Below, one piece after another: positions 662-29,709 of a stretch of DNA of 64,000 nucleotides; positions within the stretch are counted from its first letter, which is position 1, and every line of letters starts with the position of its first letter. Position numbers and translations under genes: made by a program. This DNA comes from an uncultured bacterium (lineage in GTDB: Bacteria > Patescibacteriota > Minisyncoccia > Phycocordibacterales > PALSA-1337), in contig CAIMDG010000001.1 in the NCBI GenBank assembly GCA_903839725.1, forward strand, positions 3,558 to 67,557. The letters run 5' to 3'. Under the pieces are notes generated by a model that was not told the DNA's origin, did not search any database, and saw only the letters and a list, made by a program, of their open reading frames with translations.

Positions 662-785
662 GAACGGCACAGGAGGTGTGTGTACTCATTTTGTGCAGAA
701 GTTTGTAAACATCGAGGTAAGCGGTGTAATGTACATGTCTCTAAACTTCTGCACAAAATGAGTACACACACCTCCTGTGCCGTTC
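662..785. repeat. Palindromic hairpin element copy 1: ~43-bp perfect inverted arms (662-704 / 743-785) around a 38-nt loop
   Basis: Seen directly. Arm gaacggcacaggaggtgtgtgtactcattttgtgcagaagttt matches its reverse complement exactly. The loop gtaaacatcgaggtaagcggtgtaatgtacatgtctct is conserved in the copies at 24661-24790 and 29476-29603. Confidence 0.85.
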
Positions 786-832
786 TTCGTTAAAAGATGA
801 AAAACATCTAATTTTCTGCTAAAGTATGTGAC

Positions 833-1543
833 ATGAACCCAGATCAGAAAGGCCATCTTCACCCGATAACACAGGTTATTCGAGAAATATACCCATTATT
901 CCAAGGATTGGGTTTTTCTATTGCTGATGGGCCAGAATTGGAAGATGAGTTTCATAACTTCGACGCCTTGAATGTTCCCAAGGATCACCCAGCTCGTGAC
1001 ATGCAAGATACGTTTTGGATCAAGAATTCAAAAGGCGATGCTGGTCAACGACTTGTTTTGAGAACACACACGTCTCCGGTACAGATTCGATATATGGAGA
1101 CGCACCAAGCGCCGATCCGCATTCTTGTCCCTGGAAAAGTATTTCGTAATGAAGCGACTGACGCTACACATGAAGCACAATTCTTCCAGACAGAAGGGTT
1201 GTATGTTGATACACACGTTTCTTTGGCGCATTTGAAGGGGACACTTGAGGCTATGTTCAAGAAACTATTTGGTGATGATGTTGAGATTCGTTTTGTACCG
1301 AGCTTCTTCCCATTCACGGAGCCAAGTGTTGAAGTACATATGCGTTGGAAGGGTAAGTGGCTTGAAATGGGTGGCGCAGGACTCGTCAATCCGGTAGTTC
1401 TCAAAGCTGCAGGAATTGATCCTGCTAAGTGGCAAGGCTATGCGTTCGGTTTTGGCCTTGATCGTATCGCTATGCTCAAATTTGGCATTGATGATGTGAG
1501 ACATTTGTATACAGGTGATTTGAGATTGATAAATCAATTTTAA
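833..1543 (+). CDS. pheS: Phenylalanine--tRNA ligase alpha subunit (short form lacking the N-terminal coiled-coil region)
   Basis: FNFDALNVPKDHPARDMQDTFWI and the GLDRIAMLKFGIDD class-II motifs are present. An in-frame TAA at 809-811 prevents a longer N-terminus. Confidence 0.9.
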   Translation: MNPDQKGHLHPITQVIREIYPLFQGLGFSIADGPELEDEFHNFDALNVPKDHPARDMQDTFWIKNSKGDAGQRLVLRTHTSPVQIRYMETHQAPIRILVPGKVFRNEATDATHEAQFFQTEGLYVDTHVSLAHLKGTLEAMFKKLFGDDVEIRFVPSFFPFTEPSVEVHMRWKGKWLEMGGAGLVNPVVLKAAGIDPAKWQGYAFGFGLDRIAMLKFGIDDVRHLYTGDLRLINQF

Positions 1544-1545
1544 GT

Positions 1546-3498
1546 ATGAAAATTTCCTACAATTGGCTCCAAAACTATTTTGAGAAACCACTTCCAACTC
1601 CAGAAAAACTGAAGGATGTATTTGATTTTCATTCATTAGAAGTTGAAGGATTTGATGAGGTAATGGATTCATCCCTGCCTGCGCAGGCAGGAGAAAAAGT
1701 AACTGAAACAGTTTTTGATATTAAAGTACTCCCCGATCGTGCGCATTTTATGTTGTCGCACAAGGGTGTAGCTGAGGATTTGTCAGTACTCTTAAATATG
1801 CCTTTGAAAAAGAGCGAGATTCCACCTCCACCAGCTCCAACTATTGCGACTGCACCACATATAACTATTCAAGACCCTCAATTCTGTCGTCGTTATGTAG
1901 GCCAATATGTTGAAGGGATTACTGTAGGCGAGTCACCGGCATGGATACAAACATATCTTGAAGCAGTTGGTGGTCGCCCGATCAATTCTATTGTTGATGC
2001 GACGAATATAACGATGTTCAATATAGGTCAACCATTACATGCATTCGATGCTGACAAGGTAGTTGGAGATATCGTCGTGCGAACTGCGACTGATGGTGAA
2101 AAGATAACACTACTCGATGGTGCTGAAGTTATGTTGAAGGCTGGTGAATATGTCATTGCTGATACTGAAGGACCTCTCGCTATTGCTGGAGTAAAAGGTG
2201 GTAAGCGTGCAGAAGTATCTGCTTCAACAACAAAGATTATCGTTGAATCTGCGAATTTTGATCCAACAATAGTTCGTCGTACATCAACTCGTCTCAATCT
2301 TCGCAATGAATCTTCAAAACGTTTCGAAAATGAAATTACTCCCGAGCTCACTCTCCAAGGTATGAGCGATATGATGGCTTTGGTCAAAGAATTGTGTCCA
2401 CAAGCGAAATGGGGACCTGTTGTCGATATATATCCTACCAAAGCACAACAGACTGTTATTGCTTTCAATCCTGCATATATCGAAGAACGATTGGGTGTGA
2501 AGATTCCTGAGACTGATATAAAAAATATCCTTGAAAGGAGTGGAATTGCTATTGATTCGAAGTGGAACCTCACCATTCCATTCAAACGCCTCGACCTCAT
2601 CATCCCTGAAGATATTGTTGAAGAAGTTGGTCGTGCATATGGACTTGAACATATAACTGGAATACTTCCACCACAGACAGAAAAGCCTGTTGAAGTATTG
2701 TCTACGTACTATCTGTCAGAAAAGATAAAGAATATTCTTGCTGGTATAGGTTTTTCAGAAGTAAGTTTGTATGCACTGGTCGCAAAAGGGGATATTGAAA
2801 CGTCATATCCATTGGCACGTGATAAAGCATTCCTTAGAAAAAATCTTGCTGACAACATGATGGCATGTGTGGAGAAAAATGCATTGAATGCAGATTTGAT
2901 AGGTCTTGAGGCAGTAAAGGTATTTGAAATTGGTCATGTATTTTCTAAGGGTGGAGAGACCATTTCACTATCACTTGGTGCCGCTCAGATAAAGAAGGTC
3001 AAGGGATTTAAGCCAGAACAAATTATCACTGAGGCTATTCAAGCCTTGAATGAAGGGCTTGCAGTAACTATTGCCGTACCAAAAAATACTGTAAAAGGGA
3101 ACTATGTTGTGTGTGAAATAAATTTGAGTGAACTCGTGAAGTCATTCAAGTCGAGCGAATCATATTCTGATTTGAATTTTGGCAGTACATCAGAAAATCG
3201 TTATAAGAAAATATCACCATATCCATTTATGGTCCGTGACATCGCAGTATTTGTACCTGAGGGTGTTCAAGATACTGCGGTCTGGGAAGTTGTCCAGCAA
3301 GGTATAACTGAATCAAAAGCTAATGATTTACTTGTACGTCATGCACTTTTTGACACATTCAAGAAAGATGGAAAGACGTCATATGCATTCCGTTTAGTAT
3401 TTCAATCAATGGAGAGAACACTTACTGACGATGAAGCCAATGGAATCATGGAAAAGATTTACACAGGAATGAAAGTGAAGAATTGGGAGGTGAGATAA
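1546..3498 (+). CDS. pheT: Phenylalanine--tRNA ligase beta subunit (650 aa, compact)
   Basis: Canonical PheT N-terminus MKISYNWLQNYF. It starts 3 nt after pheS. B3/B4 and B5 domain-like regions are recognisable. Confidence 0.9.
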   Translation: MKISYNWLQNYFEKPLPTPEKLKDVFDFHSLEVEGFDEVMDSSLPAQAGEKVTETVFDIKVLPDRAHFMLSHKGVAEDLSVLLNMPLKKSEIPPPPAPTIATAPHITIQDPQFCRRYVGQYVEGITVGESPAWIQTYLEAVGGRPINSIVDATNITMFNIGQPLHAFDADKVVGDIVVRTATDGEKITLLDGAEVMLKAGEYVIADTEGPLAIAGVKGGKRAEVSASTTKIIVESANFDPTIVRRTSTRLNLRNESSKRFENEITPELTLQGMSDMMALVKELCPQAKWGPVVDIYPTKAQQTVIAFNPAYIEERLGVKIPETDIKNILERSGIAIDSKWNLTIPFKRLDLIIPEDIVEEVGRAYGLEHITGILPPQTEKPVEVLSTYYLSEKIKNILAGIGFSEVSLYALVAKGDIETSYPLARDKAFLRKNLADNMMACVEKNALNADLIGLEAVKVFEIGHVFSKGGETISLSLGAAQIKKVKGFKPEQIITEAIQALNEGLAVTIAVPKNTVKGNYVVCEINLSELVKSFKSSESYSDLNFGSTSENRYKKISPYPFMVRDIAVFVPEGVQDTAVWEVVQQGITESKANDLLVRHALFDTFKKDGKTSYAFRLVFQSMERTLTDDEANGIMEKIYTGMKVKNWEVR

Positions 3499-3505
3499 TA
3501 AAAGC

Positions 3506-3537
3506 CACCGGAGAAATGTCCGATGGCTTTGCCCAGT
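3506..3537 (+). terminator. Probable rho-independent terminator after pheT
   Basis: Imperfect hairpin aaagccaccgga...tccgatggcttt directly downstream of the pheT stop. Confidence 0.4.
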
Positions 3538-3547
3538 AATTGAATTA

Positions 3548-3964
3548 CTAGGCTACGTTTTGGGGTGCGAGGTTCTCCTCGATCACCTCATGAAATAAGG
3601 TGCGGAATGTTTCCAGGACGCGGTTGAATGAGACCTGTTGTTCATTCGCGAACTCACTCAATTGTCCGCGGAATTGCGTATTGTGACGCTGGTTCTGAAC
3701 AAGGGTTTTGCACAGTAACCATGCGATTTCTCCAGCCCGCTTTTCTTTGAAGCTGTTATGCAGATTGTTGTTCAATACCGCATTGTGAAAACGGTGGATC
3801 TCCCCGTGGGGAATCCCAGTCTTTTCCTCAAGCGTCTTACAGGCACGTCTTGATTTTTCGCTGTTGGGATTCTTGAAGGTGATGCGAATCTTGAGGCTGA
3901 TAATGATTACAGCCATTTGGCGCAACTCCTCGTCTGTCATGGTTCTTTTCATAATTTCTTTCAA
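3548..3964 (-). CDS. Hypothetical protein (138 aa)
   Basis: Intact ORF in an AT-rich segment between pheT and gyrB. No recognisable motif. Confidence 0.4.
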   Translation of the reverse strand: MKEIMKRTMTDEELRQMAVIIISLKIRITFKNPNSEKSRRACKTLEEKTGIPHGEIHRFHNAVLNNNLHNSFKEKRAGEIAWLLCKTLVQNQRHNTQFRGQLSEFANEQQVSFNRVLETFRTLFHEVIEENLAPQNVA

Positions 3965-4071
3965 AAGCCAAGCCTGTGCCTGGCGAACAATTTTTTACAT
4001 ATATAACACACGAATTGTGCTATTGTCAATGTATATAAAAACACCACTTCCTGGGGAAGTGGTTGAGTGAA

Positions 4072-4437
4072 TTATTTGCATTTGTAAGTGACACGAATCT
4101 CGCGAACACTACCCGTGTCATCTTTGAGAAAGAAAAGTTCTTGTTTTCTTCCTTTCTGATCTGTGGCCGGGACTCGAGATGAGACTGTTGTGCCGAAAGC
4201 GACAATAATTTCTTCTGAATATAGTGTGATGCGCCGAGACACATGATGCTTCGGAATCTTTTTCTTTGATACGCAAGGAATCAAATTGATTGTTAACCAT
4301 TCAGTTTTTGGTGAAGGTTGTCCAGAAATGTCTTTTTCGAGAAATAATAGTCCGTGGACTTGCCATCGTTTTCTCGTGTCTTGAAAATGTGCCCGACAGT
4401 CAGAACTGATAAGTACCCTAACTTCCCCAAGGTTCAT
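4072..4437 (-). CDS. Hypothetical protein (121 aa)
   Basis: Intact ORF co-oriented with 3548-3964. No recognisable motif. Confidence 0.35.
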   Translation of the reverse strand: MNLGEVRVLISSDCRAHFQDTRKRWQVHGLLFLEKDISGQPSPKTEWLTINLIPCVSKKKIPKHHVSRRITLYSEEIIVAFGTTVSSRVPATDQKGRKQELFFLKDDTGSVREIRVTYKCK

Positions 4438-4632
4438 AAATCCTCCTATGCAGTTAATTGTTTGTCTGGAATATATTCTCTACCTCTATTTGATATATGT
4501 CAACAAAATAAGGCTCAAATACAGAACATTTCCCCAATTCGTCAATAGCTTTATGTTCATAATTTTGCTATAATTATGAGGTAAAAATTAAGTAGAAATT
4601 GTCTTATACAAAGAGCTCAACCTCTTCATTTT

Positions 4633-6756
4633 ATGTCTGAAAAACCCAAGCCAACTAAAGCAAAAAAAGAGAATAGTTACAGCGCCGATTCGATTCAGGT
4701 CCTTGAAGGGTTGGAACCAGTTCGCAAGCGCCCCGGTATGTACATTGGTACGACTGGACCAGACGGCTTGCATCATTTGATCACAGAAATTTTCGATAAC
4801 TCACGTGATGAAGCGATGGGTGGTTTTGCCAATGATATTGAAATTGCGCTTCTTCCTGGAAATAGAGTTCGTGTTGTCGACAATGGCCGTGGTATCCCTG
4901 TCGATATCCAAAAGCAGACCAAGGTATCAGCTCTCGAAACAATCATGACCGTTCTTCACGCCGGAGGTAAGTTTGGTGGTGAAGATAGTGGATACAAAGT
5001 TTCAGGAGGTCTTCACGGTGTGGGTGCTTCAGTGGTGAACGCTCTTTCCGTATATACACAAGTTATCGTACACAAAGATGGTGGGGTATACATGCAGGAA
5101 TATTCTCAGGGCAAACGCAAGGCTGCGGTGAAGAAGATTGGCTCTTCAAAACTCCATGGAACTATCGTTACATTTGAACCAGATCCCATTATTTTCAAGG
5201 AAGGCGTGATATTCGATTGGAATCGTGTCGTAAATCACATGCGTCAACAGGCATACCTCGTTCCAAGTTTGCGCATTTCAGTGATCGATGCACGCAATCA
5301 AATCTCTGGTTTTGGCTCAGACAATGAAATTTTCTATCTTCGTGAGACTGGAGTTGATGCACCATCATTCACATTCTATTTTGAAGGAGGTCTTTCATCG
5401 CTTGTTCGATTTACGAACCAGTTGATCAAGCCAATTCACAAAAATATTTTTTATGTCGAGAAGAAGGTTGAAGGCGTTGAGTCTGTAGAAGTTGCTTTGC
5501 AGTATGCTGACGACGTGTCTGGACGTATTCTTGGCTTTGCGAACAATATCAATACACCAGAAGGAGGTACTCATGTGACCGGATTCAAGACCGCACTTAC
5601 ACGTACACTCAATACCTATGCCAAGAATAACAATATGGCCAAAGGTGACGGCGATACATTCACTGGAGATGATGCTCTCGAAGGATTGACCGCTGTTGTT
5701 TCGGTGAAGCTCCGCGAAATACAATTCGAAGGTCAAACCAAGGCAAAACTTGGTTCGATGGAAGCGCAGGGTGCTACCGCCAATGTATTTGGTGAAGCAT
5801 TTGCAATGTTCCTTGAAGAGAATCCTGATGATGCACGCAGTATCATCAACAAGGTTATTCTTGCCATGAAGGCTCGTAAGGCTGCGAAGGCTGCAAAGGA
5901 CTCTGTGCTTCGTAAGGGTGCACTCGAAGGTATGACACTCCCAGGCAAGCTTGCTGACTGTCAGTCAAATGATCCGAAAGAATCAGAACTCTTCATTGTG
6001 GAGGGAGATTCTGCGGGAGGTACTGCCAAGCAAGGTCGCGATCGCAAATTCCAAGCTATTCTCCCACTTCGTGGAAAGATTTTGAATATTGAACGTGCTC
6101 GTCTCGATCGTATGCTTGGTTCAGAGCAGATCAAGAACCTCGTGCTCGCATTCGGTACAGCTATTGGTGATACTTTTGATATTACCAATCTTCGCTATCA
6201 CAAGATTATTCTTGCAACAGATGCCGACGTTGACGGTGCTCACATTCGTACACTTATTTTAACTCTGTTATTTAGATATTTCCGCCCACTCGTTGATGCT
6301 GGTCATATATTTATTGCACAGCCACCATTGTATAAGGTGAAGCGTGGTAAAGAGATTCTTTATTTCTATAGTGATGAAGAAAAGTTTAAAGCTCTTGGTA
6401 AAGATGTTGACGAGGCTGCTATGGCGGAAGCTGAGAATGCAGGAATGGAAGATGATAAGGATCGCATGCTCGATGCTGCAGGTGCTGATAAAAATGTTAA
6501 GGCCGAAGAAACTGAGGAGGTCAATACCAAGAAGGCTCCAAAGATTTCAATTCAACGCTATAAAGGTCTTGGAGAAATGAACCATGATGAGTTGTGGGAA
6601 ACTACTATGGATCCGATGAGACGTATTCTTCGTCAGGTGACAGTAGATGATGCCATTGAAGCTGATAAGGTCTTCGATATGCTCATGGGTGATGATGTGC
6701 CTGCAAGAAAGTCATTTATTCAGTCGAACGCTAAGTTGGCGAATCTCGACATTTAG
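4633..6756 (+). CDS. gyrB: DNA gyrase subunit B
   Basis: LEGLEPVRKRPGMYIGTT, the GHKL ATPase region, EGDSAGG, and the QRYKGLGEMN Toprim/tail motifs are present. Confidence 0.9.
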   Translation: MSEKPKPTKAKKENSYSADSIQVLEGLEPVRKRPGMYIGTTGPDGLHHLITEIFDNSRDEAMGGFANDIEIALLPGNRVRVVDNGRGIPVDIQKQTKVSALETIMTVLHAGGKFGGEDSGYKVSGGLHGVGASVVNALSVYTQVIVHKDGGVYMQEYSQGKRKAAVKKIGSSKLHGTIVTFEPDPIIFKEGVIFDWNRVVNHMRQQAYLVPSLRISVIDARNQISGFGSDNEIFYLRETGVDAPSFTFYFEGGLSSLVRFTNQLIKPIHKNIFYVEKKVEGVESVEVALQYADDVSGRILGFANNINTPEGGTHVTGFKTALTRTLNTYAKNNNMAKGDGDTFTGDDALEGLTAVVSVKLREIQFEGQTKAKLGSMEAQGATANVFGEAFAMFLEENPDDARSIINKVILAMKARKAAKAAKDSVLRKGALEGMTLPGKLADCQSNDPKESELFIVEGDSAGGTAKQGRDRKFQAILPLRGKILNIERARLDRMLGSEQIKNLVLAFGTAIGDTFDITNLRYHKIILATDADVDGAHIRTLILTLLFRYFRPLVDAGHIFIAQPPLYKVKRGKEILYFYSDEEKFKALGKDVDEAAMAEAENAGMEDDKDRMLDAAGADKNVKAEETEEVNTKKAPKISIQRYKGLGEMNHDELWETTMDPMRRILRQVTVDDAIEADKVFDMLMGDDVPARKSFIQSNAKLANLDI

Positions 6757-6782
6757 TCCACTGGTTTTGTACAATAGAAGCG

Positions 6783-7260
6783 ATGCAAATACGCAAATGC
6801 ATGCGAATGACGCGAATAAACGCATCCTTTTATTATGGTTCATCAAGAATCAAAGGTTATTTATCCAGAACTCTCCTATGTTATTACGGGGGTTTGTTTT
6901 GATGTACATAATCAAATAGGAAGATTTGCAAAAGAAAAACACTATGCAGATTTGCTTGAGGATCAATTAATAGAAAGAAAAATAATATATAGTAGAGAAC
7001 ACATTATTCCTAATACAGGCGACAGAATCGATTTTCTTATTGATGAGAAGATTATTGTAGAAATAAAAGCAAAGACACTGATAGTAAAACAAGACTATTA
7101 TCAAACTTAAAGATATTTACATGCTACTAACAAGAAATTAGGTTTATTGGTCAATTTCCGTAGTCGTTATTTGAAACCTATAAGAGTAATTAATGCCGAT
7201 ATACACTAAATAAGGATGCGACGTATTCGCGTCATTCGCAGGCATTTGCGTATTTGCATC
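6783..7260. repeat. Cassette bounded by 46-47 bp imperfect inverted repeats (6783-6828 and 7214-7260) enclosing the GxxExxY gene
   Basis: Left arm is GATGCAAATACGCAAATGCATGCGAATGACGCGAATAAACGCATCC. The reverse complement of the right arm is GATGCAAATACGCAAATGCCTGCGAATGACGCGAATACGTCGCATCC, giving ~41/46 identity. Confidence 0.8.
6835..7203 (+). pseudogene. GxxExxY-family (PD-(D/E)XK-like) protein gene interrupted by an in-frame TAA at ~7108-7110
   Basis: LSYVITGVCFDVHNQIGRFAKEKHY...RIDFLIDEKIIVEIKAKTL...QDYYQT*RYLHATNKKLGLLVNFRSRYLKPIRVINAD. The family-typical C-terminus (YLKAT..LGLLINF...RV.N) continues in the same frame after the stop. Confidence 0.6.
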
Positions 7261-7261
7261 G

Positions 7262-10777: not shown

Positions 10778-10873
10778 CACCCTTCACGGCACAACTTTCT
10801 TCCGTCGCCTGCGGGCGCTAATCGCTGGCTACCCATCCTCGGCGCACTACAGAAAGTTGTGCCGTGAAGGGTG
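10778..10873. repeat. GC-loop hairpin element, copy A: 23-bp perfect stem around a 50-nt GC-rich loop
   Basis: Stem cacccttcacggcacaactttct / agaaagttgtgccgtgaagggtg. The loop tccgtcgcctgcgggcgctaatcgctggctacccatcctcggcgcactac is the reverse complement of the core of the loop at 20511-20584. Confidence 0.8.
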
Positions 10874-16229: not shown

Positions 16230-16772
16230 ATGAAAACAAAATATATAGTTTCGATATGTGCGAGTATATTACTCCTTGTAAGTGTCTGGTACATCGTCCG
16301 TGCTTCTTCAGAAATCTCTATTGATCAGAATGTATATTATCCTGTCACCTACGTGGTCGACGGCGATACATTCAAGGTCTTAATAGGTGGAAAAGGTATA
16401 ACTGTTCGTATGTTGGGTATCAATACACCTGAAACAGTTGATCCAAGAAAGGCTCCTGAATGCTTTGGTCATGAAGCTTCAGATGAAACAAAAAGGTTGC
16501 TAGGAGGTAGGAAGGTGCAATTACATTTCAATCCACATAGGGAACTCAAAGATAAGTATGGTCGCTATCTTGCATACGCTTACCGTGATGATGGTTTATT
16601 CGTGAATGAGGAATTACTTAAGCAAGGTTTTGCTCGAGAATATACATTTGGTACTGCGTATTCATTTCAGCGGGAATTTCGAAATATCGAAGTTGTAGCG
16701 CAGAAAGAAAATAGGGGATTATGGGGTATGTGTGGAGATACAGCTAAAAGATTGGAGAAATCACATGATTGA
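16230..16772 (+). CDS. Secreted thermonuclease (staphylococcal nuclease/SNase homolog)
   Basis: N-terminal TM/signal. SNase motifs VVDGDTFKV, VRMLGINTPE, ECFGHEASDETKRLL and DKYGRYLAYAY are present. Confidence 0.8.
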   Translation: MKTKYIVSICASILLLVSVWYIVRASSEISIDQNVYYPVTYVVDGDTFKVLIGGKGITVRMLGINTPETVDPRKAPECFGHEASDETKRLLGGRKVQLHFNPHRELKDKYGRYLAYAYRDDGLFVNEELLKQGFAREYTFGTAYSFQREFRNIEVVAQKENRGLWGMCGDTAKRLEKSHD

Positions 16773-17151
16773 TAAGAATTTTGATGTATGGAATGATCTT
16801 AAAAAGACTTTACATACATCAGTTAAAAATCATAAATCATTTCACGAAGGTGATATTTGGTGGTGCTCGGTCGGATTAAATGTCGGTTCTGAGCAGGACG
16901 GTAAGAATAATTTGTTTGAACGGCCTGTTATTGTGATTAAAAAAATAAATAATGATCTTGCTATCATTCTTCCTCTCACTTCAATTGTGAAGCGTCCTTC
17001 TTATTATGTTCATTTGGAACATGGCTACGTGATGTTATCACAAGTTCGCTTGATTAGTGCCAAAAGATTCCAACGTTTTATCACGTCAGTATCAAGCAAT
17101 GATTTACTTGATATTAAGAAGAAATTTATTAATATAGTCTTCGATATATAA
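16762..17151 (+). CDS. PemK/MazF-family endoribonuclease toxin-like protein
   Basis: GDIWWCSVGLNVGSEQDGK..RPVIVIKK...LAIILPLTS...VHLE..QVRLISAKRF matches the MazF/PemK fold. The ORF-track start 16732 (GTG) or the ATG at ~16762 both overlap the nuclease gene's 3' end. Confidence 0.7.
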   Translation, partial: HMIDKNFDVWNDLKKTLHTSVKNHKSFHEGDIWWCSVGLNVGSEQDGKNNLFERPVIVIKKINNDLAIILPLTSIVKRPSYYVHLEHGYVMLSQVRLISAKRFQRFITSVSSNDLLDIKKKFINIVFDI

Positions 17152-17301: not shown

Positions 17302-18228
17302 TTAGTGAGAATGAAGATATGAATAAATATCCTCTAATGCCTTTACTGCATCTCCTACAGCAATATTGTTTTGATGATAGAGACCGTCCGTAACGTCGCC
17401 CGCTGCCCAAATTCCAGTAACAGATGTACGTTGATTGCGAGCGTCGACGACGACGTGGTTGTGTTTGTCTAATGTAACTGTATCTTTTGCAAAATCAGTA
17501 TTGGGAATCGAACCAATTTCGACGAATATACCAGTGACAGGGATTTCAATATCTTTGCTAGATTTTGTATCAGTATATATAAGTGAGTTAACAAATTTGT
17601 CCCCCTTAACCTCCTTGGGTACTGCAAAACTAATTGCTTTCATCTTTGGGTTTGAGAGTACTTTCTCAACAGTACCTGGATCAGCCTTGAATTCGCTACG
17701 TGCCAATAAAGTTACACTCTTACAATATGCGAGTAATTGAGCTGCACTCTCGAAGCCAGCATTTCCTGCACCAACAACAACGACATCTTGGTCTGCATAG
17801 AGTGGTCCATCGCAAGTTGCGCAGTAGGTGAGTCCTTTGTGTTCAAATGTATCAGCACCTTTCACTTCAAGTTTGCGGCGACTACTTCCTGAGACAATAA
17901 GAACAGTTTTCGCAGCATAGACTCCTTTGTTTGTGGTTACATCAAATGCGCTAGAATTTTTGGTGATGTTTTTTGCATATTCTCCATCTTTGAAATCCAT
18001 AATATCTTTACCATATGCTTTGGCATGCTTTTCAAGACTCTGTGACAATTCAAGGCCAGAGATTGCGACTGTACCAACCCAGTTTTCAATCTTCTCTGAG
18101 ACATTACTTTGGCCGAGCCAATCCTTTGTAATGAGGATAGTCTTGAGGCGCTTGCGAGCGGCATATACTGCTGCAGCTGCTCCTGCTGGTCCACCACCGA
18201 TAATTGCGAGGTCATATGTAGTATTCAT
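17302..18228 (-). CDS. trxB: Thioredoxin-disulfide reductase
   Basis: YDLAIIGGGPAGAAAAVYAARK (FAD). Redox-active CATCDG. NADPH-binding VVVVGAGNAGFESA. Confidence 0.9.
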   Translation of the reverse strand: MNTTYDLAIIGGGPAGAAAAVYAARKRLKTILITKDWLGQSNVSEKIENWVGTVAISGLELSQSLEKHAKAYGKDIMDFKDGEYAKNITKNSSAFDVTTNKGVYAAKTVLIVSGSSRRKLEVKGADTFEHKGLTYCATCDGPLYADQDVVVVGAGNAGFESAAQLLAYCKSVTLLARSEFKADPGTVEKVLSNPKMKAISFAVPKEVKGDKFVNSLIYTDTKSSKDIEIPVTGIFVEIGSIPNTDFAKDTVTLDKHNHVVVDARNQRTSVTGIWAAGDVTDGLYHQNNIAVGDAVKALEDIYSYLHSH

Positions 18229-20478: not shown

Positions 20479-20615
20479 GGGAAACGTATCTTTGCAGGAC
20501 ATAACTCTTCGAAGTGCGCCGAGGACGGGTAGCCAGCGATTAGCGCCCGAGGGCGAGCACGGCCTCCACTGGGCAGGCGACGGAGAAGAGTTATGTCCTG
20601 CAAAGATACGTTTCC
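20479..20615. repeat. GC-loop hairpin element, copy B: 31-bp perfect stem around a 73-nt GC-rich loop, in the ftsZ-ftsA intergenic region
   Basis: Stem ggaaacgtatctttgcaggacataactcttc / gaagagttatgtcctgcaaagatacgtttcc. The loop contains gtgcgccgaggacgggtagccagcgattagcgcccgagggcga, homologous (reverse complement) to the loop at 10801-10850, plus a 24-nt insertion. Confidence 0.8.
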
Positions 20616-21808: not shown

Positions 21809-21810
21809 GG

Positions 21811-21925
21811 GGAGGAGAAGTATGAAGGTATGAAGGAATTAATGTATGAAGGTATGTGGGTATAAAAGTATAAATGTACTACCGTGTATACGGACATACT
21901 TTCATACCTTCATACTTTCATTCCT
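21811..21925. repeat. Short direct and inverted repeats of TATGAAGG / CCTTCATA upstream of ftsA
   Basis: gtatgaaggtatgaaggaattaatgtatgaaggtatg ... catacctt catactttcattcctt. Several copies in both orientations in the ftsA leader. Confidence 0.5.
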
Positions 21926-22333
21926 TTATACTTTAAATTTCTTTCTCACTTCTACTTCTATACTCTCCATTATAGCGCTATGGTCGTGTCCTTTCAAATG
22001 AACACAACCGTGGATAAAGAGAAAAGGAAAGAAATTTTCATATGATCGATCAAATTTCTTTGCTTCTTCCTTTGTTTCTTTGGGAGATATGTATATTTCT
22101 CCTTCGGTTTCTGAAAGAGGGAAACTTAGAATATCAGTTGGAACTTCTTTGTTTCGGTATTGTGTGTTGAGTTTCTGTATATGTGCAGAAGTAGTAATGA
22201 TGACATTCAAGACATAGTCTTTACCAAGAACTTCATCTTTAATAGCCTCAAATGCTACATGAGGTATTTTCTCTTTTGTTTCGTTGGTAAGGGTGAAGTT
22301 GGACATGGATATATTGTATAGGGAAGGATGCAA
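21926..22333 (-). CDS. ybeY: Endoribonuclease YbeY (rRNA maturation factor)
   Basis: FIHGCVHLKGHDHS matches the H-x-x-x-H-x-x-x-x-x-H zinc motif. 135 aa. Confidence 0.85.
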   Translation of the reverse strand: MHPSLYNISMSNFTLTNETKEKIPHVAFEAIKDEVLGKDYVLNVIITTSAHIQKLNTQYRNKEVPTDILSFPLSETEGEIYISPKETKEEAKKFDRSYENFFPFLFIHGCVHLKGHDHSAIMESIEVEVRKKFKV

Positions 22334-22636: not shown

Positions 22637-22692
22637 AGTGGGAAGTATAGTAGCATGGATTTATTTTGTAGGCAAATCCATTGCGGAGTCAT

Positions 22693-23934: not shown

Positions 23935-23986
23935 ATGATTGTTGCAGAATATGGATAATGTTTATAAATCAAATCTGAATAGGTTT

Positions 23987-24628
23987 CTATTCATGCTCTC
24001 CTGGCCAAAATGCCAAAGCTGAAAGAGGGAACATTCTCACTATAGGTTTTCCTACAATGAACTTCTTGTCGAGTAATCCCCATACGCGAGAATCAGAACT
24101 CTCTGCGCGGTTGTCTCCCATAACAAAATATTCATGGGCACCAACTGATGATCGGTAAGAATCATGTGATGCGTGAGAAGGATCGACGTATGACTGATCA
24201 AGTGTGATGCCTTTTGGATTTTGCTCGTTGGTGATAGTGACTATACCGTTACGAATATCAACGTATTCATTGGGGAGACCAATAATACGCTTTATATAGT
24301 AGACACTTGGGTTGTTGGGATATTCGAATATGATGACATCACCACGTTTTGGTTCGGTGAATCGGTATGTCAAACGATCGACGATCAAAAATTGTCCTGT
24401 TGAAAAAGTAGGATCCATCGAAGCGCCACTAACGATGAATGGTTCTGCGATGAAGTATCTTACCGGGAGTGCAATAACGAGTGCGATGATAATGACTTTT
24501 ACCCATTCAGCAACATTTTGCCAAAAAGTTTTTGCTTGAGGGGAGAGGATAGGCTGATGTGGTTTATTTTTGATATCAGCTGTATCCATAAGTTGCTCTA
24601 TTGTAGTACAAAATGTCATTTGACACAA
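23987..24628 (-). CDS. lepB: Signal peptidase I
   Basis: SGASMDPTF (catalytic Ser box) and GDNRAESSDSR boxes. N-terminal TM. Confidence 0.85.
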   Translation of the reverse strand: MCQMTFCTTIEQLMDTADIKNKPHQPILSPQAKTFWQNVAEWVKVIIIALVIALPVRYFIAEPFIVSGASMDPTFSTGQFLIVDRLTYRFTEPKRGDVIIFEYPNNPSVYYIKRIIGLPNEYVDIRNGIVTITNEQNPKGITLDQSYVDPSHASHDSYRSSVGAHEYFVMGDNRAESSDSRVWGLLDKKFIVGKPIVRMFPLSALAFWPGEHE

Positions 24629-24660
24629 GTATAAAATGAGTGTTTATGTATGTTTTAAAT

Positions 24661-24866
24661 ACAAAACGCGCAGGAGGGGTGTGTACTCATTTTTCTCCCA
24701 TAGGTTAGAGACACTTACATTACACAGCGTACCCCAATGTTTACAACCTATGGGAGAAAAATGAGTACACACCCCTCCTGCGCGTTTTGTGCAGCATCTC
24801 AAATATGTAATCTTCATTAAAATTTGATTCTTTTTTCATCACATCTTCATTTCAGTTTGATATGGT
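24661..24866. repeat. Palindromic hairpin element copy 2 (24661-24790; loop inverted relative to copies 1 and 3) plus ~75-nt conserved leader (24791-24866) upstream of the pilB-like gene
   Basis: Arms acaaaacgcgcaggaggggtgtgtactcatttttctcccataggtt / revcomp. Loop agagacacttacattacacagcgtaccccaatgtttac is the reverse complement of the copy-3 loop. The leader tgtgcagcatctcaaatatgtaatcttcattaaaatttgattcttttttcatcacatcttcatttcag is ~90% identical to 29600-29680. Confidence 0.85.
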
Positions 24867-26000
24867 GTGGACATGAATATGATACACACATCAGTAGTAC
24901 AGGAATTTCCGCAACATCCAGCTACAGCGGTTGAGGCAATAGAAGGTATTCTTGCGTATGCAACTAGTCTGGGATGTTCTGATATTCATATTGATCCGAC
25001 TGACAAATATACCATTGTACGAGTGAGAATTGATGGAACGATCGAAGTGGCAGGAATGGTTACAAAACGACTTCATGATGAGATGATTTCTCGTTTGAAA
25101 ATACTTTCAGGTGCACGCACGGATCTTCATGCATTACCACAAGATGGACGTTGGAAAACAGATATTCTTGGTCGTATATATAATGTCCGAATTTCATTCG
25201 TGCCAACCTATCATGGTGAGAATGCGGTACTTAGACTTTTGCCAACAGATTCAGTTGTTCAGGTTTCATTTGCTAAACTTGGTTTTACTCCGGATATTGT
25301 AAGTATGATTGATAGGGCATTACAACGAACACATGGTCTTATTTTGGTAACGGGGCCCACAGGTTCAGGTAAAACAACCACATTACATAGTTGTCTCGCT
25401 CTCAAATCTCATGAACCTCTCTCGATAATAACTCTCGAAGATCCAGTTGAATATGAGATTGCTGGTATTCGACAGATTCACATACGTCATTCACATGGAC
25501 TTACGTTTGCGCATGGATTGCGAGCATCATTACGACAAGATCCAGATGTCATTATGGTTGGGGAAATACGAGATTCCGAAACTGCCAAAGTTGCGATTCA
25601 TACCGCACTTACTGGCCACTTAGTTTTGTCTACGCTTCATACAAATTCAGCACTCGATGCTATTCCTCGACTTATTGATATGGGAGTTGACGCATATTTA
25701 CTCGCATCAACACTCAAGGTAGTAGTTGCTCAACGTCTGGTAAGAAAAGTATGCGATGAATGCAATGGTAGTGGTTGTGTTGTGTGCCGTATGACCGGAT
25801 ATGTTGGTCGATTAGTTATTGCTGAGGCATACGAAGTTGATGAAGAAATGCAAAAATTACTAATCAAAAAAGCGTCAGTCGCCACATTGCAAGAATATGT
25901 AAATAAAAAAGGATTTCGAAATCTGGCAGATGATGGTAGAGAAAAGATTGAATGGGGAGTCACCACTCAAGAAGAAGTATTACGTGTGCTTTCTGAATAA
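24867..26000 (+). CDS. Type IV pilus/type II secretion assembly ATPase (PilB/GspE family, short form)
   Basis: Walker A LILVTGPTGSGKTTTL. Asp box, His box and the C-terminal tetracysteine CDECNGSGCVVC are present. The ORF-track start is GTG; ATG at ~24873. Confidence 0.85.
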   Translation: MDMNMIHTSVVQEFPQHPATAVEAIEGILAYATSLGCSDIHIDPTDKYTIVRVRIDGTIEVAGMVTKRLHDEMISRLKILSGARTDLHALPQDGRWKTDILGRIYNVRISFVPTYHGENAVLRLLPTDSVVQVSFAKLGFTPDIVSMIDRALQRTHGLILVTGPTGSGKTTTLHSCLALKSHEPLSIITLEDPVEYEIAGIRQIHIRHSHGLTFAHGLRASLRQDPDVIMVGEIRDSETAKVAIHTALTGHLVLSTLHTNSALDAIPRLIDMGVDAYLLASTLKVVVAQRLVRKVCDECNGSGCVVCRMTGYVGRLVIAEAYEVDEEMQKLLIKKASVATLQEYVNKKGFRNLADDGREKIEWGVTTQEEVLRVLSE

Positions 26001-26003
26001 TAT

Positions 26004-27050
26004 ATGACATTACAACGTACATGGAAACGAAGTAACAGCATTATATTTTTTGAAAGTCTTGAATCATATCTATCCGCAGGTTTGTCTCTTGATACTTGTA
26101 TACGGATGATTGGCCAGAGTTCTGCTTCTTACAAGAAGAATGTGTACACTCGTATGAATGAAGTTATTGAAAGGGGAGGATTATTCTCGGATGCTCTTGC
26201 GGAGACTGTTTCGATGCATATAACTACAATACATTTGATTCGTCACGGTGAATCGTCGGGAGATCTATTGAGGAGTATCACCCTCGCACGTTCTTTGTTG
26301 GAACATCAAGATGAGCTTATAAAGAATTGTCTGTCAGCTATGGCATACCCGTGTATTATTGGTTTCTTTGCGATTGTTTTAGTTATTGGTTTGATACGTG
26401 GGGTCATGCCACAAATTATTCCTATGTTAATTGGTTTACATGTGCAACTCCCCATTCTCACTCGCATCGTCATCTCGATGTCAGATATAACTACAAAATA
26501 TGGCTTGTATATAGTATTGGGTATATGTGTTTGCATCTCTTCATTTGTATTCATATATAAAAGATATGAAAAGTGTATGTATATGTGTCACGTAGTAATT
26601 CTCCATATTCCAATTATTGGAAAACTTGTTCGTAGTTATGCCACATCGGTATTTTTACATTCATGTGGGGCACTTCTTGATTCAGGGGTAGGTATTAGTA
26701 AAGCATACCCAAGTACCACTTCGACCATCTCAGTCTTACCGATACGATCCTATATGTCTTCATTTTGTACACGCATAGACAATGGTGCACAGCTCAGTTC
26801 AGTTTTTTATCATAAAGTTTTTCCACCATATATTTCAGCACTCATATCAGCAGGGGAATCATCAGGAACTCTGGGTCAGTCCTGTATTCGTGCCGCCCTT
26901 ATCACCGATCGTAATATGAAGCATTCATTGAAACGACTCACATCTCTTATTGAACCAATCATGATGGTTGGAATGGGTTTGATCATTGGAGCGATTGCTT
27001 TATCAATTTTGATGCCTATTTATGATATTTCAAAAGTACTACAAAAATAA
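26004..27050 (+). CDS. Type IV pilus platform protein (PilC/GspF family)
   Basis: Two GspF-like repeats with TM helices. Follows the ATPase gene in an operon. Confidence 0.75.
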   Translation: MTLQRTWKRSNSIIFFESLESYLSAGLSLDTCIRMIGQSSASYKKNVYTRMNEVIERGGLFSDALAETVSMHITTIHLIRHGESSGDLLRSITLARSLLEHQDELIKNCLSAMAYPCIIGFFAIVLVIGLIRGVMPQIIPMLIGLHVQLPILTRIVISMSDITTKYGLYIVLGICVCISSFVFIYKRYEKCMYMCHVVILHIPIIGKLVRSYATSVFLHSCGALLDSGVGISKAYPSTTSTISVLPIRSYMSSFCTRIDNGAQLSSVFYHKVFPPYISALISAGESSGTLGQSCIRAALITDRNMKHSLKRLTSLIEPIMMVGMGLIIGAIALSILMPIYDISKVLQK

Positions 27051-28452
27051 GTTTTATACTCTATATAATTCAACCATCAATACAAGACGAGGAATACTTT
27101 TGGTTGATATTATCGTGGCTCTTTCTTTGTCAGCTCTTTTTGTGGTACTTATCACTGAATCTTCCATGAATGCTCGTGAGGTGTTTCGTCACGCGCATGA
27201 ACGTTCTGAATTATTGGATATATACGAGACACGCTCAAACGAAATTAGCAGTTTATTGCCATATGGAATATATTCTAAAAATGGTCTGTCAGCCAAGGCA
27301 CGTTGGTATGGTAATGAACGTATTCAAACAGATGTTGAAGTAGAGAGTACTACATCATCTCAAACAGTTATGTTTACGATGGTGCGCACATATCCATTTG
27401 CGCGAATATCAGAGGCTGCAGGAACACCTATGTGTTCAGTTGATTTTCTTGAAGGTTCAAAAAATATAATGATCACCCCAATCTCACTACCAATATCCTC
27501 GTCCATTCTATTGACTCATCTTGAGGTTAGAAATGGTATTGCATACATCTCAGCTGATTCACCCAAAGCTTCGGATGCGGATATATTCGTTGTTGATATA
27601 AGAGAACCACTTCATTCAAGTTTGCTGAGTCAAATAAATACTGGTCCCGGGATAACCTCATTTGTCCTAGCTGGAAATCATATATATGCAGCCGCAGCGA
27701 GTACTGCTGCCCAACTTCATAGCATTCGCCTTGATAGTTTGCAGAGTCTTATTCTTGAAAAGAAATATCAAATTCCGTTACCGTATGCTACTGCAACACC
27801 TCCGTTGGGAAGTAGTATATTTTTTAATAAGAATACAATATATCTTGGCACTGAAAAATGGGATGGTGATGAATTTTTTATTATAGATGCATCTAGTCCA
27901 TCACAGCCCATTACAAAATCAAGTCTCAATATTGATACAAAGATCAATGATATAGCTATTCGAGGTGATCGTGCATACATTGCCGCTTCTGGAGAACAAC
28001 AGATGGTTGTCGCAGATATTCAAGATGTATTGTCTCCTCATATTATTGCTTCATTCGATCCTTCAGGATGGTCTCGACAAGAAGTAAAAGTCATTTCTGT
28101 TTTTGAAGATAGTTTGAATCTTGGACGAACTTCTGGTGGTTTTAATATTGCTCAGGATCATGAATTATTTGCATGGGCCTCAACTTCCTTGAATTGGCGA
28201 CCTGATGTAAGTTCTCATCAATCCGTCGATATTCCTGCTGGCGTATACGGAATCGTTACCAATCGAAATCGTATATATCTAGCGACACGACAGATTGGTA
28301 AAGAATTACAAATATTTGATATGCCATTGTCTACAAGTACGCTTGTTTCGTATGCATTACCAGTTGCGCCACAAGGCATGACATGTGACGGGGATATTAT
28401 CTATGTATTAGGAAAAGGAGCTTCTGTCATATATAAAATTACTAGTAAATAA
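27022..28452 (+). CDS. Large pilin-like protein (N-terminal prepilin-like TM helix, D at +5; tip/minor pilin candidate)
   Basis: RRGILLVDIIVALSLSALFVVLITES resembles a class-III signal and α1 helix. The remainder is beta-rich repeats. Position in the pilus operon supports the call. Confidence 0.45.
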   Translation: MIFQKYYKNKFYTLYNSTINTRRGILLVDIIVALSLSALFVVLITESSMNAREVFRHAHERSELLDIYETRSNEISSLLPYGIYSKNGLSAKARWYGNERIQTDVEVESTTSSQTVMFTMVRTYPFARISEAAGTPMCSVDFLEGSKNIMITPISLPISSSILLTHLEVRNGIAYISADSPKASDADIFVVDIREPLHSSLLSQINTGPGITSFVLAGNHIYAAAASTAAQLHSIRLDSLQSLILEKKYQIPLPYATATPPLGSSIFFNKNTIYLGTEKWDGDEFFIIDASSPSQPITKSSLNIDTKINDIAIRGDRAYIAASGEQQMVVADIQDVLSPHIIASFDPSGWSRQEVKVISVFEDSLNLGRTSGGFNIAQDHELFAWASTSLNWRPDVSSHQSVDIPAGVYGIVTNRNRIYLATRQIGKELQIFDMPLSTSTLVSYALPVAPQGMTCDGDIIYVLGKGASVIYKITSK

Positions 28453-28462
28453 TCTTTTATAT

Positions 28463-28630
28463 ATGGCACATAGAATTAGTCTAAATGGACAACAGGGAAT
28501 TACATTGATTGAAGTCCTCATATACAGCGCCCTTCTTTCTCTATTAATAAGTGGATTTATTAGTTGTGTGTACGGTGTTCATATACAAGATATTAGATTG
28601 ATTGATGAGATTAATGATTCATACAAATAA
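28463..28630 (+). CDS. Minimal type IV prepilin (55 aa; 43-aa mature product, essentially the α1 helix only)
   Basis: MAHRISLNGQQG|ITLIEVLIYSALLSLLISGFIS has a canonical G/ITLIE prepilin peptidase site with Glu+5. Not in the ORF track (<60 aa). Confidence 0.6.
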   Translation: MAHRISLNGQQGITLIEVLIYSALLSLLISGFISCVYGVHIQDIRLIDEINDSYK

Positions 28631-28634
28631 TATG

Positions 28635-28865
28635 AAGCATTATCGTGGTTTTATAGCGCTTATAGCAATAATGACATTGGCCTTAGGAACATTCGCATTT
28701 TCTATTGGAACAATGTCCGTAGCGATGTCATATCGTGATGCTGTATATGCCCGAGAAATAAGAATTCAAAAAAGACTTGATCAGCAGGCATGTCTCGATG
28801 CATTTGAACTTATGAAAGCAAAAGATTATTTCTTTGTTGGAGATTCTAATTGTGGGAAAATGTGA
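28635..28865 (+). CDS. Small pilin-like protein (degenerate prepilin N-terminus)
   Basis: MKHYRGFIALIAIMTLALGTFAFS is pilin-like but lacks Glu+5. The ORF-track start 28602 overlaps the preceding gene. Confidence 0.35.
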   Translation, partial: KHYRGFIALIAIMTLALGTFAFSIGTMSVAMSYRDAVYAREIRIQKRLDQQACLDAFELMKAKDYFFVGDSNCGKM

Positions 28866-28871
28866 TATTCA

Positions 28872-29447
28872 CTAAAATCCAAGTGTGCATGTCATTGCTT
28901 GGGATTCCGGAACTTCCCATGTTGATGTATCAAACTTTATTTCTTTGAGTGTACCGAGTTCCTTATATTTGAGAGATTTATTCTTGAATGCGTAGTCATA
29001 GAGGTCTTTGGTGAGTCTGACATCTTCAATACAATACTTGATGATCTTATCTACTTCACCAGTCCTCCACCATTCTACAGCTTCGAGACCATGTCCAGAT
29101 TTGTTTCTATTGAGTGTAGCTTCTCCGACACTATCAAGTTTGAGACGTCTACCAAGCACTTTTTGAACTTCTCTCATAAGATCGAGACTCTTGATTCGAG
29201 TCAAATCACCAGGGTAATACTTATTAAGAAGAGGTATGTCAAAATGATCACCATTCCAACTAATCAACATGTCCGCTTGTTCCAAAATAACCCAAAGGTC
29301 CTTGAAATCTTTTTCGAGATAACTCGAATATTCATCGGTGAGTGAATCGTGAATACAGACAACGGAAATATCGAGATCTACGGGGTCATTTGAACCAACG
29401 TCTTGGAATATATTTTTAGTTTCAATATCAAAAGTTATTTTTCGCAT
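28872..29447 (-). CDS. DnaQ-like DEDD-family 3'-5' exonuclease
   Basis: Exo I FDIETKN, Exo II WNGDHFDIPLL, Exo III YCIEDVRLTKDLY. Confidence 0.7.
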   Translation of the reverse strand: MRKITFDIETKNIFQDVGSNDPVDLDISVVCIHDSLTDEYSSYLEKDFKDLWVILEQADMLISWNGDHFDIPLLNKYYPGDLTRIKSLDLMREVQKVLGRRLKLDSVGEATLNRNKSGHGLEAVEWWRTGEVDKIIKYCIEDVRLTKDLYDYAFKNKSLKYKELGTLKEIKFDTSTWEVPESQAMTCTLGF

Positions 29448-29475
29448 GGGTAGTATTGTAACATATTGTTTAAAT

Positions 29476-29709
29476 ACGAAACGCGCAGGAGGGGTGTGTA
29501 CTCATTTTCTGTACAAGTTTGTAAACACTGCGGTACGCTGAGTAATGTAAGTGTCTCTAAACTTGTACAGAAAATGAGTACACACCCCTCCTGAGCGTTT
29601 TGTGCACAATCTCAAATATGTAATCTTCATCAAAATTTGATTCTTTTTTCATTACATCTTCATTTCAGCTTGATACGATTGTTGTATTAGTAATGTAATT
29701 ATTTTTTGT
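29476..29709. repeat. Palindromic hairpin element copy 3 (29476-29603) plus conserved leader (29604-~29690) upstream of the major pilin gene
   Basis: Arms acgaaacgcgcaggaggggtgtgtactcattttctgtacaagttt / revcomp (outer ends imperfect). Loop gtaaacactgcggtacgctgagtaatgtaagtgtctct. The leader matches 24791-24866. Confidence 0.85.

Follow-up and report, generated by a model that had tools for sequence, protein, structure and literature searches.

Palindromic intergenic elements in a Paceibacteria contig, probably a lineage-specific dispersed repeat family

The three palindromes and their surroundings

The stretch of DNA analysed here (hereafter the window) comprises 64,000 nt of contig CAIMDG010000001.1 from an uncultured, ultra-small bacterium of the Patescibacteria (Paceibacteria/Parcubacteria), a placement that agrees with the names under which homologues of its PilC and S2 proteins are listed, and it contains three near-perfect palindromes of 126-130 bp each, E1, E2 and E3. 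E1 lies between the gene of a family-2 glycosyltransferase (GT2) and pheS, E2 between lepB and the gene of a pilB-like ATPase, and E3 between the gene of an RNase H-like exonuclease and a pilin gene. A three-copy hairpin family had been predicted from the letters of the window, and all three copies are found where they had been placed, with arms of 44-46 bp around loops of 38 nt. The elements and the promoters next to them are the following, the palindromes themselves having no strand.

632-655, no strand: left half of an outer imperfect palindrome around E1 (partner 791-812), containing the -35 region TTGAAA of the GT2 promoter (648-643, minus strand)
661-786, no strand: E1, between the GT2 gene (minus) and pheS (plus); arms 661-704 and 743-786 (44 bp, perfect), invariant 11-mers 682-692 and 755-765, loop 705-742 (38 nt, type A, forward)
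791-825, plus strand: right half (791-812) of the outer imperfect palindrome and the pheS promoter, with a -35-like ATGAAA at 797-802 and an extended -10 box TGCTAAAGT at 817-825 that ends 7 nt before the ATG at 833
24661-24790, no strand: E2, between lepB (minus) and the pilB-like ATPase gene (plus); arms 24661-24706 and 24745-24790 (46 bp, perfect), 11-mers 24683-24693 and 24758-24768, loop 24707-24744 (type A, reverse complement)
24791-24866, plus strand: right flank of E2, shared with E3 (94%); candidate pilB promoter with the extended -10 box TGATATGGT at 24858-24866, 6 nt before the ATG at 24873
29455-29463, minus strand: extended -10 box TGTTACAAT of the exonuclease gene, ending 7 nt before its start codon and outside E3
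29476-29603, no strand: E3, between the exonuclease gene (minus) and the pilin gene (plus); arms 29476-29520 and 29559-29603 (45 bp), 11-mers 29498-29508 and 29571-29581, loop 29521-29558 (type A, forward)
29604-29679, plus strand: right flank of E3, shared with E2; candidate pilin promoter with the extended -10 box TGATACGAT at 29671-29679

The hairpins are far beyond chance. Folded as RNA, the three elements reach -83 to -97 kcal/mol (z scores of -14.5 to -17.4 relative to shuffled sequences), and folded as DNA -54 to -59 kcal/mol (z of -13 to -16.5). The arms of E3 are perfect over 35 bp and have two mismatches within the outer 10. The 15-mer GTGTGTACTCATTTT occurs exactly six times in the 64-kb window, every time in an arm of E1-E3; when up to three mismatches are allowed it has nine matches, compared with 2.6 on average in shuffled sequences. 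No fourth copy in the window was found with a covariance model of 13 members of the family described below. In several copies the palindrome runs on imperfectly into sequence that is unique to the locus. In particular, E1 sits 11-12 nt from the -35 box on either side and its mirror symmetry reaches over both -35 regions.

The loops of E1 and E3 differ at 8 of 38 positions (79% identity, in line with the figure of about 80% that had been predicted), while the loop of E2 is the reverse complement of this type. E2 and E3 have in common 105 nt of right flank at 94%, the outer right arm included, and 45 nt of left flank at 93%. Since these flanks match on both sides, the flip of the E2 loop relative to them, which had also been predicted, is genuine. 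The 72-nt 'leader' common to E2 and E3 is best read, judging from its sequence, as promoter DNA that is paralogous between the pilB operon and the pilin gene. Promoters of this kind are frequent in the window: an extended -10 box (TGnTAnnnT) is present within 75 nt upstream of 18 of 65 genes compared with 5.2 expected (about 3.5-fold), and these boxes often end 6-12 nt before the start codon, a pattern which suggests that leaderless mRNAs are widespread in this organism. A further example lies upstream of 17302-18228, and the automatic start calls of the pilB-like gene (24879) and of lepB (24619) may be off by a few codons.

The wider family, its covarying arms and the exchange of centres

Further copies were gathered by scanning genome and metagenome collections for the inverted 11-mer pair, and orthologous loci were then fetched via the neighbouring proteins; the collection scans used the exact 11-mer pattern, so that diverged copies are under-sampled. 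The family comprises at least 15 copies at about 10 loci in four related Paceibacteria populations. The 13 full or near-full copies, which score 108-135 bits with the covariance model, and two partial ones (EG, at the PBP2-greA locus, and L062) have one common layout: an outer arm peculiar to the locus, the block RGGRGG, a variable stretch of 3-5 nt, the invariant GTACTCATTTT (replaced by GTATTCTTTTT and ACACTTCTTTT in two diverged copies), 6-9 variable nt, a block tied to the loop type (AAGTTT or GARAAT), the 38-nt asymmetric spacer and the mirrored arm. The loop measures 38 nt in all copies except the divergent L061, where it measures 39 nt. Two main loop types, A and B, and the L061 variant can be aligned with each other in one relative orientation, and their conservation extends beyond the two promoter-like hexamers of the loop to four blocks about 10-11 nt apart. 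Known loci amount to three copies per 64 kb, with five loci in the window organism and eight in the related Ga0194062 strain. As had been suggested when the elements were first noticed, a search beyond the window thus yielded more copies, with covarying arms and all of them extragenic.

Five of the loci of known context lie between divergent genes (E1, E2, E3, a gap between an MFS gene and rpsB, and L033), two between tandem genes (L001 and EG) and one between convergent genes (L030, comF/tyrS), while two further loci are known on one side only. The MFS/rpsB gap, which is the sole locus that can be compared across species with the same flanking genes, reveals a presence/absence polymorphism at an orthologous site: in L066, L020 and L061, which have the element, the gap measures 205 nt, and in L069/L070, which lack it, 62 nt, with the MFS and rpsB promoters back to back. 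At the E2 and E3 loci there is no such empty-site test, because the relative represented by L061/L062, one of those at 59-68% PilC identity, has different genes upstream of pilB. Conservation between species is also evident in E1 and the L001 copy of another species, whose loops are identical at 30 of 38 positions although the gene flanks are unalignable. On the sequence evidence, this conservation of 11-mer and loop indicates that some sequence-specific function exists.

Most matches of the collections to the arm pattern were discarded as unrelated palindromes with the same 11-mer (Saprospiraceae, Bacillaceae and giant-virus-like contigs), and three scans of viral collections returned no family member and only an unrelated AT-rich family. 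The AT-rich repeats (L008, L009, L012-L014, L018, L021, L022, L024, L025, L027, L028, L032 and L039, with L063 and L064 from IMG/VR) carry the identical inverted pair ATTATGTACTCATTTT ... AAAATGAGTACATAAT at a spacing of 54-64 nt (62-64 nt in the family of E1-E3), with up to four copies per kb and one contig labelled GVMAG; the common pair may be a coincidence or a common protein-recognition motif. A hairpin at 823-935 of L003, upstream of a mutM-like gene in a metagenome-assembled genome labelled Bdellovibrionales, has GCGTGTACTCATTTT arms with 13 nt of arm in common, an unrelated 52-nt loop and 29 bits with the covariance model, and may be a distant relative. The idea of a DNA uptake sequence was abandoned, the 11-mer being confined to the elements in the window.

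Covariation was measured on an alignment of 13 copies. Of 601 stem cells 94% are paired, and 37 of 49 stem pairs (147 cells) are altered on both sides, a number reached in 0 of 500 shuffles; sliding the partner column abolishes the signal. The compensatory arm change noted in the original prediction is thus borne out, as the arms alter on both sides yet stay complementary. However, G·U is almost missing, with just one such pair among the inner 40, and the compensated changes include transversions, which means that this covariation is not the normal mark of selection on an RNA helix.

The rate of arm change is informative as well. Four-fold degenerate sites diverge by 26-42% between the compared strains. 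E3 and its orthologue in another strain (L011) differ at 9 of 44 arm positions, nearly all of them in the variable segments, and the substitutions in the perfectly paired part of the arm are mirrored on the opposite arm; single-arm, uncompensated intermediates are present in L011 and L066. Given the divergence at four-fold sites, the idea of hypervariable arms was dropped, and the variable arm positions evolve at about the neutral rate. Change that is neutral in rate and always compensated is too fast for stepwise compensation under selection, and it is what would be expected if a mutation in one arm were either erased or copied across. The near-perfect arms and their 'covariation' would then arise from the copying of one arm's DNA onto the other, likely by intrastrand template switching or hairpin-templated repair at replication, with no need for RNA-helix selection. 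The flipped E2 loop would be a by-product, as symmetric arms let a template switch or an imported centre land either way. The original prediction had named intra-element homogenisation as an alternative to selection on the hairpin, and this alternative comes near to the evidence. Template-switch mutations are described to alter several bases at once in a compensatory manner, to lengthen the stem and to invert the loop completely (PMC8794818), and all three of these signatures of quasipalindrome correction are also found in the window family. Nevertheless, the reported loop inversions are mostly of 4-8 nt, compared with 38 nt here (PMC8794818), and template switching is a mutational process and not an element family, and does not account for the conservation of loop and 11-mer.

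The same data bear on the possibility that the elements are transcribed and work as RNA hairpins, for instance as a long double-stranded stem that serves as a site of RNase III processing or of stability, or as a terminator in both directions. In favour of this, the elements form extremely stable folds as RNA, an A-tract, a GC-rich stem base and a T-tract give E2, E3, L007 and the rpsB-site copies the look of a bidirectional terminator, L030 has convergent genes as neighbours, and L038 and EG follow a PBP gene. We nonetheless regard this explanation as improbable: besides the near absence of G·U in about 600 stem cells and the compensated transversions, the window copies lie upstream of the flanking promoters and should be outside those mRNAs, T-tracts are missing in E1, L001, L030, L033 and L038, and no Rfam family matches even at permissive thresholds. 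Indeed, in a scan against Rfam 15 only tRNAs pass the gathering scores, and a permissive scan gives generic miRNA-hairpin matches at 28 bits with thresholds of 72-75. A conserved RNA helix within the loop was likewise rejected, since the CATCG/CGGTG pairing of E1 is not retained in E3.

Outer arms and centres of the elements have different histories. At the E2 locus in two strains (E2 and L007) the outer arms are identical at 0.85 and the centres, type A and type B, at 0.61, whereas L007 and L033, from different loci, agree at 0.45 in the outer arms and at 0.98 in the centres. Similarly, the rpsB-site copies L066 and L020b of two strains agree at 0.95 in the outer arms and at 0.49 in the centres, and L066 and L011, from different loci, at 0.50 and 0.95, respectively. 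Because these identities are incongruent, the centres (inner arm and loop, bounded by the 11-mers) must move between loci in either orientation, while the outer arms are locus-specific. At the rpsB site, the loop is directed toward rpsB in L066 and in the opposite direction in L061 and L020b.

Recombination between elements is directly evident and has also rearranged the chromosome. Assemblies with 100% identical PheS have two different upstream neighbours. Most have the order GT2-E1-pheS as in the window; in L074/L078 (a 12.8-kb contig, k = 141, from a variant strain 99.6% identical to the window over pheST) and in a second assembly greA is joined to pheS. The junction is a hybrid element with its left arm from EG, the PBP2-greA element seen in L079, and its right arm from E1; these arms are non-complementary, and the DNA fold falls to -22 kcal/mol from -56 for E1. 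The loops of E1 and EG are 38/38 identical, and together with the loop-proximal ends of the arms they form a 50-nt identity in inverted orientation. A single crossover within it gives exactly the observed greA-pheS junction and implies a chromosomal inversion, polymorphic in the population and with its breakpoints inside two palindromic elements. The reciprocal GT2-PBP2 junction was not recovered among the fetched loci; greA and the pilC of the window are most likely on one contig of 358,670 nt.

Loop promoter, loop orientation and the nature of the elements

The original prediction took the hexamers TTGTAA-N18-TAATGT of the loop for a promoter. These hexamers are present, but they match 7 of 12 consensus positions and are absent from the output of a promoter scan. 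Type B loops are without them and yet replace type A at the same loci, the loop 'promoter' of the tandem copy EG has greA behind it and faces into the 3' end of the PBP2 gene, and L030 lies between convergent genes. In addition, the flanking genes examined have an extended -10 box of their own outside the element, with lepB as the sole exception. The GT2 promoter reads TTGAAA-N17-TATGCT, the MFS gene and rpsB have extended -10 boxes outside the element between them, and the rpsB promoter, TTGACT-N17-TGATAAGCT, is kept in relatives with and without the element. The sequence evidence therefore tends to contradict a promoter in the loop. Promoter parts may be contributed by the outer ends of some copies, as in Correia elements: in L001, from another species, an E1-like element and the promoter on its right (91% identity over 46 nt) stand before the gene of a different aminoacyl-tRNA synthetase, which is LeuRS-like.

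The second part of the prediction, an invertible promoter switch in front of pilus genes, was evaluated through the loop orientation in independent public assemblies, which serve as an assembly-level proxy. At E2, six assemblies cross the loop and three end within it, all nine in the orientation of the window; at E3 two contigs cross, two end inside and the orientation is uniform; and one orientation each is seen at E1 (three assemblies) and at the rpsB site (two assemblies). The sole dissent comes from the end of the L043/L048 contig, the first 10 nt of which (GTGTCTCTAA), beside the E2 right arm and right flank, read in the opposite orientation. Either a rare flipped variant or a chimera formed by fold-back could account for this end, which is a lead, not a result. 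A perfect palindrome with a 50-bp stem and a 12-nt loop also stands exactly at a contig end in L030 (4720-4831); it is probably an assembly or fold-back artefact, and calls for caution with contig-end palindromes such as that of L043/L048. Contig breaks within the elements were set aside as evidence of inversion, because arm sequence common to the copies, strong hairpins that are poorly sequenced and the E1 x EG variant suffice to explain them.

A recombinase encoded elsewhere could in principle flip the 38-nt loop, or the 62-nt segment between the 11-mers, and so redirect the loop promoter, at the pilus genes among others. Such a switch would fit the opposite loop orientations of E2 and E3 despite paralogous flanks, the differing orientations of orthologous rpsB-site copies, the L043/L048 contig end and the many assemblies that break within elements. 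We nevertheless hold it to be very improbable. The assemblies are uniform at each site apart from that one end, the hexamers are poor and not kept in type B loops that take the place of type A, the flanking genes carry their own promoters, and flipped orthologous copies also differ in sequence, which makes them replacements and not simple flips. A Pfam scan of 59 of the 67 open reading frames (ORFs) of the window detected no recombinase, integrase or transposase domain, in agreement with the statement of the original prediction that no recombinase is encoded there. Moreover, a segment of 38-62 bp is very short for synapsis by a conventional invertase. A special link to type IV pili also does not hold, as only two of about 10 known loci adjoin pilus genes. 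What is left of the case for a switch would rest on one 10-nt contig end and the conserved asymmetric loop, and nothing shows that the elements act as an invertible promoter switch of pilus genes.

A bolder form of this idea takes the inverted 11-mers, GTACTCATTTT ... AAAATGAGTAC, as crossover sites of a dedicated recombinase encoded elsewhere. The elements would then be invertible and exchangeable cassettes of 62-64 bp, a dispersed 'shufflon' that tunes divergent promoters, including those of type IV pilus genes. To this proposal, too, we give very little credence; if true, it would mean that Patescibacteria slowly vary in phase or type through an invertible unit of unusually small size, with the polarity and the A/B type of the 38-bp module as the tuner.

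The explanation that we favour, as a probable one, is that E1-E3 are dispersed palindromic intergenic repeats of about 126 bp, specific to a lineage of Paceibacteria (Patescibacteria) and similar to REPINs, ERICs and Correia elements. The copies occupy intergenic gaps, mostly between back-to-back divergent promoters whose -10 boxes lie outside; either this space upstream of promoters tolerates them or they act there. A transposase-like or DNA-binding protein, with no gene in the window, probably recognises the parts that are conserved between species, namely the 11-mer, RGGRGG and the loop blocks; this is the least secure step. The genomes of Patescibacteria are small and streamlined, and a full-text literature search retrieved no paper that describes an interspersed family of palindromic repeats there; as far as the literature searched shows, such a family is new for the phylum.

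Several observations weigh against this explanation. Neither in the 59 scanned window ORFs nor in the fetched loci was a transposase or RAYT found, the 11 copies inspected have no consistent target-site duplications or fixed ends, and the copy number is low (three per 64 kb). The empty rpsB site is not clean, since about 17-21 extra nt also differ, and it fits a deletion as well as an insertion. Both the 11-mer and the loop are kept between species with saturated flanks, which implies a function that a mere repeat leaves unnamed, and template switching is deduced from sequence patterns and not observed. Lastly, the preference for divergent gaps (three of three window copies, P of about 0.01-0.04, and two other loci of known context) is modestly significant and could mean a regulatory role rather than mere tolerance.

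Such a role is the core of another explanation, in which the elements are exapted cis-regulatory DNA structures. A cruciform formed under negative supercoiling between divergent genes, or a regulator bound via the 11-mers and loop blocks, would insulate or couple the promoters, and the perfection of the arms would be both selected and homogenised. This agrees with the divergent position of the three window copies, the rpsB-site copies and L033, with the placement of E1 at 11-12 nt from both -35 boxes and its mirror symmetry across them, with the conservation of loop blocks and 11-mer across species beyond neutral expectation, and with the recurrence of the loop blocks every 10-11 nt or so. On the other hand, copies are also found in convergent (L030) and tandem (EG, L001) gaps and beside 3' ends, a related species has the same divergent rpsB/MFS promoters back to back with no element, the hybrid variant persists in nature with a crippled hairpin, and centres of another type or orientation interchange at one locus. 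On balance we consider a regulatory structure of this kind possible but rather unlikely.

If the elements are dispersed repeats, they matter in several ways. Homogenisation of the arms at the DNA level mimics covariation of the RNA type, which calls for caution in covariation-based RNA discovery. The elements also offer a natural example of loop inversion and centre exchange between dispersed palindromes, as well as of such repeats as breakpoints of a chromosomal inversion in a wild population, and they explain why assemblies of these organisms tend to break there. The conserved 11-mer and loop would imply a binding protein that is worth finding. The question of pilus phase variation, in contrast, is not opened by these findings.

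Other features of the window and comparison with known systems

Other parts of the window deserve a mention. A second hairpin family, at 10778-10873 and 20480-20615, has a GC-rich core TCCGTCGCCTGC...GGGCGCTAATCGCTGGCTACCC[A/G]TCCTCGGCGCACT of 50 nt in one copy and 74 nt (with a 24-nt insert) in the other, in opposite orientations; these cores are enclosed by locus-specific perfect inverted repeats of 23 and 31 bp, the same design as in the family of E1-E3, and have no Rfam match. At 6781-7261 a 38-bp inverted repeat, 97% complementary, surrounds a 405-bp segment with an ORF of 91 aa (6835-7110) that belongs to the PD-(D/E)XK nuclease family PDDEXK_3 and is apparently truncated; the whole, which lies downstream of gyrB, may be a small unit that is mobile or invertible. 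Between ybeY and ftsA (21820-21934), an imperfect inverted repeat of 48 nt is made up of 8-nt units in tandem (GTATGAAG and variants). At 16230-17151 the genes of a staphylococcal-nuclease-like protein and of a MazF/PemK toxin overlap by 41 nt, and no antitoxin ORF was identified there. Finally, a purine biosynthesis cluster at 50387-63285 encodes a purL-like FGAR amidotransferase of 1330 aa, purN, a purM-like gene, a purC-purE fusion and a purF-like gene. Patescibacteria are commonly without nucleotide synthesis, and this cluster is thus unusual; its G+C content is 0.45-0.52 compared with about 0.40, and it may have been acquired horizontally.

Among known systems, several can be set aside from the structure of the elements. 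An intrinsic (bidirectional) terminator was rejected on the stems of 44-46 bp, the loop of 38 nt, the location of the window copies between gene starts and the presence of T-tracts in some copies only. Integron attC sites, which have R''/R' core sites (RYYYAAC / GTTRRRY) and extrahelical bases, were rejected because the elements end in ACAAAAC / GTTTTGT or AGAACGG / CCGTTCT, no bulge interrupts their perfect stems, and there are neither cassettes nor an integrase. By inspection, the defining motifs of retron msd, sigma-54 boxes and HUH nick-site loops are absent, and mini-ORFs in the arms (GTG/ATG-TAC-TCA-TTT; ATG-AGT-ACA...) were discounted because start codons and frames are not conserved between copies.

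Guide RNA units of the TIGR-Tas type, which are common in Patescibacteria, are closer in appearance. Stem-loop TIGR units have palindromic stems around a spacer pair and occur in bacteria of the Candidate Phyla Radiation (bioRxiv 10.64898/2026.09.09.750476), and the 38-nt loop, which would have to consist of box C, spacer A, loop, spacer B and box D, is near the 36-nt length of a tigRNA. Solo units of this sort are nonetheless hardly credible here: the copies are solitary and dispersed and not in a tandem array, their loops are conserved and not diverse like spacers, no pair of box C (RUGAUGA) and box D (CUGA) encloses the loop, and no Nop-domain ORF was detected in the window.

Invertons such as fimS, hin and those of gut Bacteroidales resemble the window family in that inverted repeats surround an asymmetric intergenic segment with promoter-like hexamers. 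Known invertons typically measure hundreds of bp with much shorter repeats, need an invertase and have both orientations in one population. Of these three marks (long segment with short repeats, invertase, coexisting orientations) none was found for E1-E3.

The original prediction also compared the elements with promoter-carrying miniature inverted-repeat transposable elements such as Correia elements, and this comparison holds in part. As a dispersed repeat family the elements come close to it, with presence/absence polymorphism at the rpsB site. They are not classical elements of that class because there is no target-site duplication, the rpsB site having only an imperfect AGAGTAT / GAGATAT. 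The Correia elements of Neisseria (CREE/NEMIS) are short palindrome-ended intergenic repeats able to supply promoter parts to their neighbours, and a similar ability is suggested by the reach of the E1 symmetry to both -35 boxes and by the combination of element and promoter in L001. Correia elements end in repeats of 26 bp, duplicate a TA target and are present in hundreds of copies, whereas the present family has arms of 44-46 bp, no target duplication and its promoter-like parts outside the perfect palindrome. ERICs (or IRUs) of enterobacteria are likewise long intergenic palindromes, of 127 bp, with tens of copies or fewer and a presence that varies between related species, in all of which the family is alike; to our knowledge they have no transposase. 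They differ in being imperfect palindromes, usually inside transcribed regions, and we know of no report of ERICs with locus-specific outer arms and exchangeable centres.

REPINs, the hairpin-forming REP doublets of Pseudomonas and E. coli that RAYT transposases mobilise, provide the last comparison. The family of E1-E3 lacks REP end blocks, which are short imperfect palindromes with a GTAG-like head, since GTACTCATTTT is self-complementary only at GTAC and without a GTAG head, and small self-hairpins are limited to the outer flanks of some copies (E1, L038). It further differs in that the 38-nt asymmetric spacer is conserved too, the arms are essentially perfect over 44-46 bp, the copy number is low and no RAYT is found in the 59 window ORFs scanned. 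The architecture is nevertheless that of inverted conserved end blocks, a spacer and a long extragenic hairpin. In the GI REPINs the inverted invariant ends are 71 bp apart and compensatory changes in the hairpin are common (PMC3116915). In the same way, E1-E3 and their relatives are extragenic hairpins, about 100 nt long, in which two invariant blocks stand inverted to each other and start 73-75 bp apart compared with the 71 bp of GI REPINs, with an intervening sequence that varies while compensated changes hold the hairpin, and with loci that persist across related lineages (PMC3116915).

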